Source: an uncultured virus (IMG/VR IMGVR_UViG_3300025870_000001) (lineage: Duplodnaviria; Heunggongvirae; Uroviricota; Caudoviricetes). Taken from it: 61,237 bases of DNA. Below, piece after piece: positions 848-36,092 of the stretch. How positions within the stretch are numbered: the stretch's first letter is position 1; every line of letters starts with the position of its first letter. The notes below the pieces were generated by a model. That model searched no databases, was not told where the DNA came from, and was given only the letters and a program-made list of their open reading frames with translations. The stretch lies in the IMG/VR virus record IMGVR_UViG_3300025870_000001. One strand, written 5' to 3'. The position numbers and the translations under genes are program-made.

Positions 848-3301
848 ATGGCAGATCTTGCACCAGTAACAGAAAAACTGATAAAACAAAATCAAGAAGA
901 ACTAGCAAAGTCTGTAAAGGATGCAAGTACGTCCTTACAGTCTGCTGGTGCAAGACAAGCTCTTACAGAAATTGCATCTATTTTTGAAGAACAATCTGGA
1001 GTGTCAGTAAAAGAATTTAAACAGAGCAGAGATAAAATCACTGCACTGTCATCATCTTTGGATGAAATGGATACTGTATCAAATACTGAAAGAAAAATAC
1101 TTGAAGATATTCTTAAAAATTCCCAGACAAGTATAAAAGAAAACGCAAACTTCAAAAAAAGCATTGGGGAATTAACATCTAATGCAGTTAAGTCTGGACT
1201 AGATGGTGTGGGCGGAATGTTAACTGGCGCTCTTGCACAGAGTCCTATTCTGGCTCTTGGTGCAAGTTTTCTTGGAGATCGTGTAAAACAATTTAGAGAA
1301 AGACGCGCAGCCGCCAAAGAAGAAGAAAATCAGAGAATAGAGAGAATAAAACAAGAAACCGAAATCGAGAAAAAAGAATTTGAGATTTTAAGAACCCAAA
1401 TATCTAATGAAGATGCTATTTCTCGTTCTAATATGGATCAGCAAAAGATTCAAGAAGAAGCAAGATCCAGAGGTGTATCTGAACAAACTGTAATAGATGA
1501 AGTAAAAGATAATATTATCAGGACAGCTAAAAATGAAAAACTTTCAAATGATGCGAAAAAAGCAGAATTAGATGCAATAGAAGATCTCAAAAAGAAATAT
1601 GAAATTGAAACTGAAGTATCTAAACCAGAAAGTCCTACAGAAAACTTTAATGATAATATAAGTACACCAGAAACAACTGAAACGGATACAAATGCACTAT
1701 TAGATATTGATGAAAAGTTGGGGCCCAATCAAGCATACTTAGAAGAAATTAGAGACCTCTTGCAATGGATGAAAGATAATGATGGAAATCCTACTTCTCT
1801 AGAAATAGAAGAAGCAAGAGAATTGAGAAGAGAAAGAAAAAAGACACTTGAGATTGAAAAGGCACAACTCAAAGCAATGCAGGGAATGGGTGCCGGTGGT
1901 TTAGGTATATCATCTGGTAAGGCCGGTGGCAATGAAGGAAGTTTATTAGATACGGTTGGTGATATTGGTGGGGGAGTTGCCGCGTTGGGTGGTCTTGCTG
2001 CTGCATTTAAAGTATTTAAAAAGGGTGGGTTTAGAGGTTTAATCAAAGCGGTTCCAGCTCTAATGGGGTTATCTACTGCAATGGATGTTATCACACCAGA
2101 TCTCGCTTCATCAATAGATGGGCCAGCTGGCCGCGATGCAGCAAAAACAAGAAAAGCAAAACCCAGAGGAAGATTTGGACGAATATTCGACTTTGCAAAA
2201 AGAAATTTAAAAAAAGTAAATCCAAAATTATTACTCGGTGGAGCCGCTGTTGCAACAGCAGTAGGAGCGACTACAGCACTCACACCAAGTAACGATATAG
2301 ACACGCCCAAATCTACAGCACTCACACCAAGTAAAGATATAGACACACCCAAATCTGCAAAACCAAGATCTGGATCTGGTGGATTGGGTAAGGCAAAAGA
2401 ACTGATATCTAAAAAAACTAAAACTGCTGTTGCGGCTACCAGTGCTGTTGCATCAAAGGCAGCAACTCCTGTCAAGTCTGCTGCTAGTGCAATTAATAAA
2501 AAACTTGCAAAAACTATTTTAGCAAAAAGGGGAGCAATGATGGCCGCGAAGGCGATCCCTGCTGTCGGAGCGATTGCAGGAGCAGGATTTGCATTGGGAA
2601 GATTATTTCGTGGTGATTTTGTAGGTGCTGCAGCCGAAGCCGGTGGTATATTAGTGCCGGGCCCAATTTCAGCTGCAGTAGACATTCCGATCATGGTCAG
2701 AGATACTTACAATGATATGTATGGAACAGACGATAATAGATTTCCATTTGAAAGTGATGGAATCACTAAACCAGAAATATTTAAAGAAAGAACTGCCGCT
2801 TTGGGAAAAATGGCAAAAGAAATGATAACTGGCACAGATGATAATATTGAGAAACATAACAAAAACGCTTCAGAAGTAGAAAGAAGTAATATAAGTTCAG
2901 AAATCACAGATATGGAAAGTGAACTGGAAACATTATCCAACAAAAGCAGACAAAACCGCGGCGACAGAAGAAGAATGGGCGAGCTAAAAAGAAATATAGA
3001 GGTCAAAAAAAATCGGCTGGCGGAAATCACTCCAGCACCAACCGATAATAATATTGATAATTCTATACAAAATGTTGCATCTACGCAAGCAGAACAAAAA
3101 CTTCAAGTTGCAAATGCAATGAACGGAAATGCATTAGATAATCAAGCTTCTGCAGCTGCTGCTAATGTGGTTGTCGCCCCTACTACAAATAATTCAACCA
3201 ATGTAGTAAATAATAACAGCACAACAAATACAGCAAAACCAGAAGTAAGACATACGGATATGTCTATAAGAAATATACATGCTGGAATTGGTGCATATTA
3301 A
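848..3301 (+). CDS. Tape-measure / gp29-like long helical tail protein
   Basis: 817 aa, coiled-coil plus Gly/Ala-rich amphipathic segments, N/T-rich C-terminus; follows gp26/gp51-like genes. Confidence 0.55.
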   Translation: MADLAPVTEKLIKQNQEELAKSVKDASTSLQSAGARQALTEIASIFEEQSGVSVKEFKQSRDKITALSSSLDEMDTVSNTERKILEDILKNSQTSIKENANFKKSIGELTSNAVKSGLDGVGGMLTGALAQSPILALGASFLGDRVKQFRERRAAAKEEENQRIERIKQETEIEKKEFEILRTQISNEDAISRSNMDQQKIQEEARSRGVSEQTVIDEVKDNIIRTAKNEKLSNDAKKAELDAIEDLKKKYEIETEVSKPESPTENFNDNISTPETTETDTNALLDIDEKLGPNQAYLEEIRDLLQWMKDNDGNPTSLEIEEARELRRERKKTLEIEKAQLKAMQGMGAGGLGISSGKAGGNEGSLLDTVGDIGGGVAALGGLAAAFKVFKKGGFRGLIKAVPALMGLSTAMDVITPDLASSIDGPAGRDAAKTRKAKPRGRFGRIFDFAKRNLKKVNPKLLLGGAAVATAVGATTALTPSNDIDTPKSTALTPSKDIDTPKSAKPRSGSGGLGKAKELISKKTKTAVAATSAVASKAATPVKSAASAINKKLAKTILAKRGAMMAAKAIPAVGAIAGAGFALGRLFRGDFVGAAAEAGGILVPGPISAAVDIPIMVRDTYNDMYGTDDNRFPFESDGITKPEIFKERTAALGKMAKEMITGTDDNIEKHNKNASEVERSNISSEITDMESELETLSNKSRQNRGDRRRMGELKRNIEVKKNRLAEITPAPTDNNIDNSIQNVASTQAEQKLQVANAMNGNALDNQASAAAANVVVAPTTNNSTNVVNNNSTTNTAKPEVRHTDMSIRNIHAGIGAY
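2271..2354 (+). repeat. 42-bp in-frame tandem duplication (TALTPSxDIDTPKS x2)
   Basis: ctacagcactcacaccaagtaa(c/a)gatatagacac(g/a)cccaaat twice. Confidence 0.95.
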
Positions 3302-7489: not shown

Positions 7490-8164
7490 CTAAAATTGAT
7501 TCTTATATTCTTCTACCATATTTATCAGGTCGCCGATGTGTGCATCACGCTTTGAAATAAACACTTCTGGTTCATCCTTATCTGCGATTGCCGCAATAAT
7601 TACAAGACTATTTATAGGCATTTTATATCTCTCTTCAAACATAACTGCATATCCTGCAGCTTGACGGAAATATTTTTCTAACTTACCATATTTATCACCG
7701 ACCATAGGTTGCCTAGAAGTCTTAAAGTCGATTACGGACAACTTACCATCAAAATCTGCTACACAGTCTACAGTGCCTGCTAAACCAAGATGGTCAGAAT
7801 ACATAGGTTTCTCTTGTGCATAGATATTATCAACACGATTATCAAGAACAGGTTTTATCTTCAAAAAAGTCTCTATGTCAAATGGCATAGTCTTTTCTGT
7901 TTTCCATTCTAGATTATTTAGGTGGTCTTCAGCCATTTGATGGACACTAGTTCCACTTCTTGCTGCTTGTGTTGTTATTTTGTTTGCAACTTCCGCACCA
8001 ACTCTTCTTCTCCACTCTGCAATACCCTTTGCGGAAAAATGTGAGAGAACAGTTGTGATAGATGGATACTTATTTCCATCTGGTGTTTCATAAAATCTTT
8101 TGCCATTTTCTGTAACCCTTTTTAAAGTGTGGGTTGGCAATTCAACATCTACATGATTAAACAT
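7490..8164 (-). CDS. PD-(D/E)xK exonuclease of T4-like phages
   Basis: RFYETPDG..YPSITTVL, GTSVH, E..., AGTVDC, IDFKTS, Q..GYA. Confidence 0.9.
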   Translation of the reverse strand: MFNHVDVELPTHTLKRVTENGKRFYETPDGNKYPSITTVLSHFSAKGIAEWRRRVGAEVANKITTQAARSGTSVHQMAEDHLNNLEWKTEKTMPFDIETFLKIKPVLDNRVDNIYAQEKPMYSDHLGLAGTVDCVADFDGKLSVIDFKTSRQPMVGDKYGKLEKYFRQAAGYAVMFEERYKMPINSLVIIAAIADKDEPEVFISKRDAHIGDLINMVEEYKNQF

Positions 8165-8221
8165 TTTTAATTCCTATTTTAAGTTAAACCTCATCCTCCA
8201 GCTCAACTCTTCCTTTCTGTC
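8144..8221. repeat. 78-bp direct repeat, copy 1 (copy 2 at 8610-8687)
   Basis: aacatctacatg...cctttctgtc identical in both copies. Confidence 0.97.
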
Positions 8222-8400
8222 GATCCTAGTTCAGCCCCATCATAAAGACATTCTCATAAATGATACCATAGTATTAGTAAACCCTATTTTACGTCGATTA
8301 CTAATACTATGATGTTAGTTCAAATGTCCTTATGGTGGAGCTGTGGGGTACTGCCCCCCAGTCCAGTTCGTATTCGATTTGTTTCATCGATTACATCTTT
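8217..8400 (-). ncRNA. Truncated permuted tmRNA: tRNA-like domain plus intervening segment, no tag reading frame
   Basis: T-arm UGGGG-GGCAGUA-CCCCA, CAGCUCC-ACCA (CCA at 8335-8333), hairpin intervening segment, GGGGCUG-AACUAGGAUCGACAG from 8238; G3-U70 pair; 5' boundary approximate. Confidence 0.85.
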
Positions 8401-8402
8401 AC

Positions 8403-8591
8403 TTAGTCCATGTCCATGACTAAGAATTCTTTGTCTAACCATTTGCGTTCTTTTTTGTTATACGCTTTCTTGATCTTTTTGCAAACTTTAGATCTTTGTG
8501 TATAACAGTAGAACTCACGCGCATCAGTTAACACATCCCACTCATCACCAGAGTTCATAGGTTTTCTTGGCAGTCTACTATTTCTCTGCAT
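8403..8591 (-). CDS. Small basic hypothetical phage protein
   Basis: 62 aa, AAGGA RBS; lies within the repeat-flanked cassette. Confidence 0.7.
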   Translation of the reverse strand: MQRNSRLPRKPMNSGDEWDVLTDAREFYCYTQRSKVCKKIKKAYNKKERKWLDKEFLVMDMD

Positions 8592-8609
8592 CTAATCTTC
8601 CTTCTATGA

Positions 8610-8687
8610 AACATCTACATGATTAAACATTTTTAATTCCTATTTTAAGTTAAACCTCATCCTCCAGCTCAACTCTTCCTTTCTGTC
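8610..8687. repeat. 78-bp direct repeat, copy 2
   Basis: Identical to 8144-8221. Confidence 0.97.
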
Positions 8688-8817
8688 CACATTTCGGGCA
8701 ATACCAATTGCCCCGATCAATTTTAAAATTACTTCTCATTACTGCATAAGTGAAGTAACACTTACACTGGGCACAAGTAATATGAAAAATATATTCCAAG
8801 TGCGCCGAGAAACTCAT
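8650..8817 (-). CDS. 55-aa zinc-ribbon protein
   Basis: Hand-translated MSFSAHLEYIFHITCAQC...WYCPKCGQKGRVELEDEV; two CxxC. Confidence 0.75.
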   Translation of the reverse strand: MSFSAHLEYIFHITCAQCKCYFTYAVMRSNFKIDRGNWYCPKCGQKGRVELEDEV

Positions 8818-10865: not shown

Positions 10866-11219
10866 TTAGAAGCTGAATGATGCACCAATGCTAATATCAC
10901 CCATTCCCCACTCATCGTCTGTAGTGGTTTTTGTATATACTTCCAAGCCAGTTACTGAAGTTACTGGTAGTGTTACTTGATATTCCATACCTGTAAATTC
11001 AATATCTTCTAGATCCATAATATTTGGGCCAACTTCTACGTTAGCAATACCAAAATCCCATGTCAAATCAGTTTCAAATGTCAAAGCATTTGTTTCTGTT
11101 TCCATGTTTCTTTCTGCTTTAAATTCACTGTCTAATGATAGACCATTTCCTAATTCAATCGCTGCGGCCGAACTTGCCAAACCAAGTGCAACAACACTTG
11201 CTGTAATAAGAGTTTTCAT
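10866..11219 (-). CDS. Secreted small outer-membrane beta-strand protein
   Basis: Signal peptide, alternating amphipathic strands, C-terminal ISIGASFSF (terminal Phe). Confidence 0.7.
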   Translation of the reverse strand: MKTLITASVVALGLASSAAAIELGNGLSLDSEFKAERNMETETNALTFETDLTWDFGIANVEVGPNIMDLEDIEFTGMEYQVTLPVTSVTGLEVYTKTTTDDEWGMGDISIGASFSF

Positions 11220-11258
11220 TTCTGTATTTCCTTTGTTAAAATTCTTATAAATTAAAAT

Positions 11259-11580
11259 GTCACTACTTCTGTTGCTAGGTGAGTGACCAACCCCCTGTGG
11301 TTATGCTGCTAGAGCAAACTCAGATGGTGCAAAATTATCGTTTGCATTTGTAGTTTGTGGCTGAATAACGTAGGCCAACACGGTAATCTACTCTCATCTC
11401 TACACACCTGTCGATCCTAGTTCGCCCCCATCATAAATGCACTAACTTCGACTACCCATTCGGGCCATCTATGTTCTGCAAAACTTCCTGTTGCAGCAGG
11501 ACGCAGTGCATTTATGGTGGAGGCGTTGGGTACTGCCCCCAAGTCCAGTATGTATGTTGAATCGTATCAACAATTACAAG
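11259..11580 (-). ncRNA. ssrA: Permuted two-piece tmRNA, alphaproteobacterial type; tag ANDNFAPSEFALAA
   Basis: Acceptor piece UUGGG-GGCAGUA-CCCAA-CGCCUCC-ACCA (CCA 11517-11515), paired intervening segment, coding piece GGGGGCG from 11429, tag 11345-11301, terminal GCAACAGA hairpin; ends approximate. Confidence 0.95.
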
Positions 11581-11584
11581 TATA

Positions 11585-11613
11585 CTTATAACATAGTTTT
11601 CCATGTGCGTCAA
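11585..11613 (-). promoter_or_regulatory. Sigma70-type promoter of tmRNA
   Basis: TTGACG-N17-TATAAG. Confidence 0.65.
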
Positions 11614-11649
11614 TAGTTTTTCAACTTTTTAATACACATGGTATTTTTA

Positions 11650-24835: not shown

Positions 24836-24900
24836 TTTCGAATCACTTTCTTTCTTGTTACTCCTTAATGTAACATATGTAGTAAGCTATGTCAAGGGCC
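24836..24900 (-). repeat. 65-bp promoter/leader cassette, identical copy at 26551-26615
   Basis: Exact match read from sequence. Confidence 0.95.
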
Positions 24901-26022: not shown

Positions 26023-26285
26023 TGTAAGTAATCCTGCTGAAGTATTTCCAGTTTCTCTAAAGGGCGCACCAACACATCTTCTGTCACTATCATGCGGCGG
26101 CCAAGGTTGTTCCATACGCAGTCTTCAGTGTAGATTTTCATCGAACCATCATCATACATAACGGTGATAAGAGTCTCTCCATCTGCATCATCGTGTATCG
26201 ATACGATCTCACCAACTGCAGTATAGTTTACATAGCGGCGCAGAAAACCCATCCCAACTTCAAACATATCATCATTTCCTTCCAT
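26019..26285 (-). CDS. Small early protein
   Basis: Behind promoter and GTGATTCG leader. Confidence 0.65.
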   Translation of the reverse strand: MEGNDDMFEVGMGFLRRYVNYTAVGEIVSIHDDADGETLITVMYDDGSMKIYTEDCVWNNLGRRMIVTEDVLVRPLEKLEILQQDYLQ

Positions 26286-26353
26286 TACGAATCACTTTCT
26301 CTCTTGTTACACCCTAAAGTACCATAACCAGCTGCCAATGTCAAGGGCAAATA

Positions 26354-26551
26354 TTAAAGATTTCCTTCATTTGCCTCACAAAAAGATTGTGAGTAATCTG
26401 GTTCGAGCATTGTGGCAATCGAAACTTCCAGTTCGAAAGTCTCTTGTGACATCTCTGACAAGTCTAAATGCGACATTTGATTGTCGAAGATACGTTCTGC
26501 ATAAGAACGTGAACAATTTAATAGATCTTGTATTTGATTGATGTAGTACAT
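26354..26551 (-). CDS. Small early protein
   Basis: Behind the 65-bp cassette. Confidence 0.65.
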   Translation of the reverse strand: MYYINQIQDLLNCSRSYAERIFDNQMSHLDLSEMSQETFELEVSIATMLEPDYSQSFCEANEGNL

Positions 26552-26649
26552 TTCGAATCACTTTCTTTCTTGTTACTCCTTAATGTAACATATGTAGTAA
26601 GCTATGTCAAGGGCCGAAGATAAATAAAATGTATTGTTAGGAGAATATC

Positions 26650-35702: not shown

Positions 35703-36032
35703 TTAAATTTTTTCAAATCCACACATTGCAACTTCATACTTGGTGTTACCAACTAACATTTGATCTCCCATGGATGTAGAACGGAGCCCCCATGCCTGTC
35801 CACGGTCATCAACTGGTAGGGGTGCCATAACAGTTACGTTCTCATTATAGTCACCGTTTTTACCACTAGACAAAAACTCTGATTGGATACTCCAAGAACC
35901 CATCACGTTATTTGTCCAACGATATGCATACTCCAGTTGTTCTTCAACTGACATGGTATCATCAACTTCAACTAATGCAACTGTCTGAGGGGTCTGGCCA
36001 AAGGCGGCGTGAATTACTGCAACTTGTGTCAT
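35703..36032 (-). CDS. Hypothetical early protein
   Basis: LEYAYRWTNN..GSW, GLRSTSMGD; AAGGAG RBS. Confidence 0.75.
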   Translation of the reverse strand: MTQVAVIHAAFGQTPQTVALVEVDDTMSVEEQLEYAYRWTNNVMGSWSIQSEFLSSGKNGDYNENVTVMAPLPVDDRGQAWGLRSTSMGDQMLVGNTKYEVAMCGFEKI

Positions 36033-36092
36033 TATATATCTCCTTTTTACACTTCACTTTAACATATGATTCGGGCAATGTCAAGGGCTAAT

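Follow-up and report, generated by a model that had tools for sequence, protein, structure and literature searches.

The window analysed here, a stretch of 61,237 nt from an uncultured marine T4-like phage, raises the question of why the tRNA-like domain of a second, tag-less permuted tmRNA lies directly in front of an exonuclease gene in a genome that also carries a complete tmRNA. A preliminary description of this DNA had offered several answers, among them functional roles for the RNA and a recombination relic. Below, the domain is described first, followed by its insertion site, its probable donors and its interpretation; all genes and RNA features of the window with coordinates given in the text lie on the minus strand.

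Anatomy of the tRNA-like domain

The presence of a tRNA-like domain in the sequence is confirmed, far beyond chance. In a scan against Rfam, the alpha_tmRNA model (RF01849, gathering cut-off 50 bits) matches positions 8217-8367 with 62.5 bits (E 8e-15 for the whole window), and the tmRNA_permuted model (RF04321, cut-off 47 bits) matches the domain with 61.6 bits. Both matches are local and cover the tRNA-like part alone (model positions 85-169 of 355 and 30-108 of 213, respectively), so the Infernal comparison proposed in the preliminary description recovers this part and nothing else of the alpha tmRNA. The domain is thus above the cut-off but has no whole-model match, whereas complete genes reach 105-135 bits over model positions 1-355. 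ARAGORN found no tmRNA at the domain, its sole tmRNA call in the window being the full copy at 11210-11608. An Rfam tmRNA match above threshold can therefore be a gene fragment, which is a warning for annotation.

According to the Rfam alignment and the sequence, the domain starts with an acceptor piece (8333..8367) composed of the helix 2a strand CUG, the T arm, CAGCUCC and ACCA. It is followed by an intervening segment of 94 nt (8239..8332), a long hairpin with 23-nt arms (8258-8280/8298-8320) that extends the acceptor stem, and by the first 22 nt of the "coding piece" (8217..8238), which run from G1 at 8238 through GGGGCUG and AACUAGGAUCGA to CAG. The acceptor stem has 7 bp, formed by the 5' strand GGGGCUG from G1 and the 3' strand CAGCUCC, after which ACCA ends at 8333, and it includes the G3-U70 pair. 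The T arm (UGGGG/GGCAGUA/CCCCA) has a tmRNA-type loop, and the conserved AGGAUCGAC stretch that follows the acceptor 5' strand is intact, with cmscan posterior probability "*" over the T-arm and AGGAUCGAC columns. A 266-nt RNA folds into the acceptor stem, the T arm and an extended spacer stem at -77.9 kcal/mol (z = -7.2), and none of 200 shuffled sequences folds as well. Compared with the full copy, the fragment shows compensatory differences in the acceptor stem (C5-G68/U6-A67 vs G5-C68/C6-G67) and at the second pair of the T stem (G-C vs U-A). The complete permuted tRNA-like domain with G3-U70, T-loop, CCA and hairpin spacer, as well as its compensatory differences from the full tmRNA, had been recognized in the preliminary description, and both observations are borne out.

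Everything downstream of this domain in a tmRNA is missing. Model positions 170-355 of RF01849 are unmatched at the fragment, where no resume codon, no tag frame ending in ...AA-stop and no pseudoknot region were found. The helix 2 remnant amounts to 3 bp (CUG/CAG), its downstream strand being replaced by a repeat of the ORF55/exonuclease region described below. The upstream flank of the fragment (8368..8402), which occupies the site of the helix 2 5' strands in complete genes, folds as a local 5-bp hairpin, and the downstream partner strands are absent. The earlier statement that the pseudoknot, the tag and most of helix 2 are missing was therefore accurate. Judged from the sequence, tagging by the fragment is excluded, with helix 2 beyond 3 bp, pseudoknots, resume codon and tag frame all lacking. 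The distances noted earlier are likewise correct (the exonuclease AUG is 74 nt from G1, and the resume codon of the full copy is 84 nt from its own G1), and that they are so similar is a consequence of the position of the junction.

The complete two-piece tmRNA that belongs to the phage itself, with the tag ANDNFAPSEFALAA, is located at 11258..11628 (11210-11608 according to ARAGORN). Its closest counterpart among cultured phages is the SsrA of the OM43 phage Melnitz, with 76.6% identity over 45% of the length. Directly downstream of this gene there is a 117-aa ORF (10866-11219) with a signal-peptide-like start, which belongs to no Pfam or PHROG family.

Empty and filled alleles of the insertion site

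The fragment is flanked by two intact genes. Downstream of it lies the gene of a PD-(D/E)XK family exonuclease (7490..8164; phrog_298, 2.6e-67), the protein product of which shows at most 47.5% identity to phage records. Cultured phages include no close relative, and the exonuclease DNA matches cyanomyophages over 86 nt only. The upstream neighbour, ORF55 (8650..8817; weak match to phrog_7696), encodes a small Cys-rich protein with a CxxC...CxxC pattern. Between and partly within these genes we identified a perfect 78-nt direct repeat (8144-8221 and 8610-8687), each copy of which comprises 12 codons from the end of ORF55, the leader between the two genes with its RBS, and exonuclease codons 1-7. 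It is the leader, RBS and start in the downstream copy, R2 (8144..8221), that serve the exonuclease gene. In the upstream copy, R1 (8610..8687), the exonuclease start is reduced to an 8-codon ORF (8630-8604) that stops at the donor's TAG. The two copies enclose an insert of 388 nt (8222..8609), which comprises an RBS, a gene for a basic protein of 62 aa (ORF62, 8403..8591) and the front part of a permuted tmRNA gene.

Both junctions of the insert coincide with short stretches of shared sequence in alignment A1. The left one is the 8-nt TAGATGTT (8610..8617), common to exonuclease codons 5-7 and to the end of the gene that precedes ORF62 in a donor-like contig, L115, the match to which begins at 8617; it also occurs, with one mismatch, in a second donor-like contig, L118. 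The right one is the 5-nt GACAG (8221-8217), common to the tmRNA's GGAUCGACAG and to ORF55's UGUGGACAG, and the sequence after GACAG is identical to 8610-8687. Two microhomology joins with a 78-nt stagger on the recipient explain the whole structure. The earlier view that the domain runs into the exonuclease leader was right as to the continuity of the sequence, but what it had described is the right-hand junction of an insertion; the 78-nt duplication, the 62-aa ORF and the insertion junction had been missed. Beyond GACAG, the end of ORF55 and the tmRNA helix-2 strand are alike at 14 of 20 positions (window 8202-8246 vs 11393-11437); this resemblance might reflect patchy homology that helped the right join, but it is indistinguishable from chance.

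A search of IMG/VR with the exonuclease protein yielded 60 loci, 57 of them with at least 150 nt upstream of the gene (the record used, G001, shares with the window roughly its initial 22.6 kb). In only two of the 57, L010 and the window-overlapping record L008, is the exonuclease gene preceded by a tmRNA motif within 700 nt. The site is empty in six contigs of other metagenomes (L009, L011, L012, L013, L014 and L025), with ORF55, the leader and the exonuclease gene following one another uninterrupted in alignment A1; they are 97-98% identical to the window around ORF55 and 99-100% identical in the exonuclease gene. Two further loci, L015 and L027, stop short of the insertion site. The insert is also absent from ten relatives with 82-84% identity and from all more distant ones. 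Every empty-site relative whose fetched locus reaches the complete tmRNA gene possesses it, and in these four of the six contigs it is exactly the one tmRNA match; L013 and L014 have no tmRNA match, and their fetched loci end before this gene. Among five 84% relatives that were scanned, no tmRNA match was found beyond the complete one.

The filled form is represented by three assemblies and by DNA runs of three studies, released in 2016-2020. L010, from another metagenome, extends from 8330 into the exonuclease gene at 100% identity and includes the downstream junction, and L117, assembled from a third metagenome, matches 11591-8394 at 99.94% and includes the upstream one. Among the Logan contigs of DNA runs, a 496-nt contig of X2 spans 8192-8687 without any difference, and contigs of X1 and X4 tile both junctions. 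The unitig depth of the repeat in X1 is 23.1, with 9.97 and 8.62 in the flanks and 11.9 in the insert, so that the repeat depth is approximately that of flank plus insert, as expected for two repeat copies per genome. The fusion is therefore real DNA present in several data sets, and the concern raised earlier, that it might be unique to this contig or lack spanning support, does not hold. The search for the same fusion in related phages suggested at that time had a mixed outcome, the fusion being found in L010 and L117 and absent from the six 97-98% strains. The filled copies share at least 99.9% identity, too little divergence to gauge conservation.

We further checked the transcriptional context of the insert. 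Promoter and terminator scans gave counts no higher than those in shuffled sequences (22 vs 19.6 and 3 vs 2.1, respectively) and nothing usable at the insert, and no terminator-like site was found on the minus strand between 7400 and 12200. Since the cassette lies within a leftward gene run without such a site, its co-transcription with the neighbouring genes is likely. Three metatranscriptome contigs of run X15 each fit the locus partly and continue into donor-type or other tmRNA contexts; none of the three covers 8144-8216 or the fused junction.

Donor-like arrangements and the ORF62 family

The 29-nt acceptor core of the domain (T arm to ACCA, 8333-8361) occurs exactly in 47 IMG/VR contigs, one of which overlaps the window. 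Among the other 46, there are 44 with a complete permuted tmRNA (34 identified by ARAGORN and 10 by Rfam) and two that are cut by contig ends. Hence this version of the domain is the prevalent one in the phage group and truncated only here, which supports the earlier proposal that it came from a distinct functional tmRNA gene. The donor match is split in two. For the left part, L115 (a 118-kb contig) and L118 carry ORF62 at 95-97% nucleotide identity, with the acceptor piece immediately downstream of it; L115 continues with a complete tmRNA, and L118 stops at the end of its contig. For the right part, the complete tmRNAs of L130, L131 and L132 have a tRNA-like domain and spacer 92-98% identical to the fragment, and the 94-nt spacer of L131 is identical to window positions 8239-8332. 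Both halves of the domain are letter-identical to those of intact genes elsewhere and show no decay. In the searched loci, no single contig was found to join ORF62 to a complete tmRNA with the domain and spacer of the window.

In L130, L131 and L132 the T stems and the remaining tmRNA differ despite a spacer identical (L131) or 92-98% identical (L130 and L132) to that of the window, and the spacer seems, from these comparisons, to be exchanged between tmRNA genes as a unit. Across the loci fetched here, phage tmRNA spacers range from 25 to 236 nt, and several contain small ORFs. An ORF of 27-29 codons (MIKWI...KYL..) was observed in the 111-120-nt spacers of ten loci (L077, L084, L085, L090, L092, L093, L098, L099, L100 and L107), in five distinct versions, with a GGAG-type RBS and a start approximately 20 nt past the CCA. 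Ten pairwise comparisons of this ORF sum to 22 synonymous and 43 non-synonymous codon differences, which suggest that it may be coding. A longer ORF, of 47 codons, lies in a 149-nt spacer of L068 and L091.

ORF62 belongs to a small phage-only family without a Pfam or PHROG match; its five homologous clusters are all unnamed, and its Atlas neighbours are all viral hypotheticals. Among cultured phages, only weak matches to Arthrobacter phages were found (E 3e-3), and the AlphaFold model, a three-helix bundle, has a mean pLDDT of 66, which is too weak for a fold search. Relatives were identified at 13 loci. A motif invariant across 11 family members and the codon differences between the window and L115, seven synonymous and none non-synonymous, indicate that ORF62 is a real gene.

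The closest family members (at least 76% identity) all adjoin tRNA-type genes. In L119 (2911-3244), a relative of ORF62 fills the gap between tRNA-Glu and tRNA-Ser genes, starting 15 nt past the former and extending into the 5' end of the latter. In five other loci (L120, L121, L122, L123 and L132), relatives are located within the intervening segment of a complete permuted tmRNA. For example, in L120 (2879-3339) the CCA ends at 2980, the ORF occupies 3001-3186 and G1 is at 3174, and the ORF stops at a UAG that, in the mature RNA, is part of the conserved AACUAGGAUCGAC. The 236-nt spacer of L132 contains a 62-aa family member after the same hairpin as that of the window.

Origin of the fragment and comparison with known systems

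We consider a recent microhomology-mediated insertion, in which the tRNA-like domain is a passenger fragment and not a new ribosome-rescue RNA, to be the best explanation, with a probability of roughly 0.8. It builds on what the sequences show, namely the layout of the locus, alleles with and without the insert, arrangements like those of a donor, and both junctions; the recombination relic listed among the earlier options is accordingly favoured by the insertion polymorphism, the microhomology junctions and the donor-like arrangements. The donor would have been a complete two-piece tmRNA gene of a related marine phage, the front part of which was carried as a passenger with the adjacent ORF62 in one 388-nt segment. 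By illegitimate recombination this segment would have joined the ORF55/exonuclease boundary at TAGATGTT on the left and GACAG on the right, with recipient joins staggered by 78 nt, so that the ORF55 end, the leader and the exonuclease start would have been duplicated. Both ORF55 and the exonuclease gene are intact after the duplication, which is probably why the insertion event survived. The cassette would be transcribed with the leftward ORF55-to-exonuclease unit and ORF62 translated from the RBS brought in with the insert, while the tRNA-like domain presumably folds and host RNase P may cut at G1 (8238), with trimming to the CCA (8333). Since all determinants for RNase P and AlaRS of intact genes are kept, cleavage at G1 and charging are plausible.

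There is no sign of selection on the fragment, given that it is absent from sister strains and that its end was set by a 5-nt microhomology. The functional options put forward earlier, an SmpB/AlaRS decoy, an Ala-Val rescue and an RNase P-processed leader, find no support, the fusion occurring at 2 of 57 loci and being absent from the six 97-98% strains and all more distant relatives. Several points count against a pure relic. The undecayed domain fits recency but also constraint, and its strong fold (z = -7.2) is a further argument of this kind. Perfect 78-nt repeats should be easily deleted by recombination in a T4-like phage. The filled allele was nevertheless found in the DNA of three studies, so the insert could be favoured, perhaps on account of ORF62; should any part of the insert be under selection, this gene is a better candidate than the tRNA-like domain. 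By analogy, the published CDS-less tmRNA of mycobacteriophage DS6A, which in PMC11915505 is said to inhibit the endogenous tmRNA in E. coli, would also speak for an effect of a tag-less phage tmRNA.

A processing or decoy role for the fragment is conceivable. In its general form, this idea holds that RNase P and 3' trimming free an alanine-chargeable two-piece domain from the ORF55-ORF62-exonuclease transcript, which would act either as tRNA-type punctuation setting the levels of both messages or as a DS6A-like competitor of trans-translation, and we regard it as unlikely. If true, the ORF62 message would terminate in one strand of the domain and the exonuclease message would begin with the other, and a half-molecule of tmRNA would have been recruited naturally as a terminus of an mRNA. 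Under punctuation, the domain would be kept because the polycistronic RNA is cut there, so that the ORF62 message would finish in a structured 3' CCA and the exonuclease message would acquire a different 5' terminus, with altered stability or ratio of the two. Such a role would suit the presence of every RNase P determinant of intact genes, the minus strand without a terminator-like site between 7400 and 12200, and the tRNA-type processing sites that bound ORF62 relatives between tRNAs (L119) or in tmRNA spacers (L120-L123 and L132). However, strains with the empty site use this same leader for exonuclease expression and have no such domain, the position of the domain follows simply from the location of the microhomology, and the near identity of the filled copies (at least 99.9%) leaves too little divergence to judge conservation; we rate punctuation as rather improbable. 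The competitor version, in which the domain, once processed and charged with alanine, would bind SmpB and EF-Tu and compete with trans-translation or modulate it, can point to the intact G3-U70, CCA, T arm and GGAUCGAC region as well as to the precedent of DS6A (PMC11915505). It appears very unlikely, as a decoy would also hinder the phage's own complete tmRNA 3 kb away, the fragment is missing from sister strains, the 5' half would remain on a 0.75-kb mRNA and not on a small RNA, and the origin event needs no selection on the RNA.

Two other explanations have hardly any probability. Trans-translation onto the exonuclease message, in which the charged domain would bring the exonuclease leader to stalled ribosomes that resume near the AUG, or a two-residue Ala-Val rescue, is suggested by the spacing of 74 vs 84 nt from G1 and nothing else; the fragment has no helix 2 beyond 3 bp and no pseudoknot region, and there is no tmRNA-like sequence before the AUG because this region repeats the ORF55/exonuclease intergenic sequence letter for letter, which makes the idea extremely improbable. 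An assembly chimera of this phage and a donor-type phage might explain why two independent contigs break in or beside the domain (L010 starting at 8330 and L117 ending at 8394) and why donor-type sequence co-occurs in run X4. Yet the microhomologies, 8 and 5 nt long, fall far below the word sizes of assemblers, separate assemblies as well as contigs of three DNA run studies reproduce both junctions without any difference, and the repeat depth is roughly that of flank plus insert, as for two copies per genome, so that we give a chimera next to no weight.

Under the preferred insertion reading, the locus is a cleanly resolved case of small-cassette exchange in uncultured marine T4-like phages, with both alleles, donor-like arrangements and both junctions visible, and the target duplication would explain the survival of the neighbouring genes. 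If the domain is processed and charged, the filled and empty sister strains form a natural pair for testing a tag-less tmRNA domain during infection. Elsewhere in the window, intergenic elements of 44-65 nt are repeated: 24836-24900 and 26551-26615 are 100% identical, with related copies at 26285-26349 and 36025-36089, and a further pair is found at 20614-20657/20900-20943. On the minus strand these elements contain a TTGACA-type promoter and an RBS, and they flank segments of 0.3-1.7 kb; they may mark other cassette boundaries.

Among known systems, the closest in gene type are the two-piece tmRNA genes documented in marine T4-like phages (PMC9004378). With those of Melnitz and the pelagimyophages, the fragment shares gene type, lineage, acceptor stem, T arm, encoded CCA and stem-closed spacer; it differs from them in ending 22 nt into the coding piece, without helix 2 beyond 3 bp, resume codon, tag or pseudoknots. 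The CDS-less tmRNAs of jakobid mitochondria and some plastids, like that of DS6A, resemble the fragment in having a tRNA-like domain without a tag frame. They are, however, stand-alone genes kept in their lineages, whereas the fragment is a strain-level polymorphism in a genome with a complete tmRNA, and its 5' half runs on into an mRNA without a break. The conservation expected of a CDS-less tmRNA was not found, the fragment occurring at 2 of 57 exonuclease loci and being absent from six strains with 97-98% identity. As three features that define a tmRNA are also lacking, we class it as a gene fragment and as a member of neither family.

Fragments of ssrA are known from prophages, where, according to PMC9004378, they were left by imprecise excision. 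Like such fragments, which stem from integration at, or imprecise excision from, a host tmRNA gene, the one described here is a recombination-derived partial tmRNA gene in phage DNA. Here, however, it is the front of the gene and not its 3' end that is present, the source is another phage's tmRNA gene, the flanking repeats are non-tmRNA sequence, and the junctions are microhomologies and not an att core. An att-site ssrA fragment of an integrative element was considered and rejected, as the repeat consists of the ORF55 end, the leader and the exonuclease start, and no integrase was found among the eight neighbouring ORFs scanned. The genomes of T4-type phages are subject to modular shuffling of small gene cassettes. 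The present case agrees with this process in that a small ORF with its RBS was moved between related phages into an intergenic boundary and is flanked by direct repeats, but here the repeats would be a target duplication made by the event itself and not pre-existing regulatory repeats.
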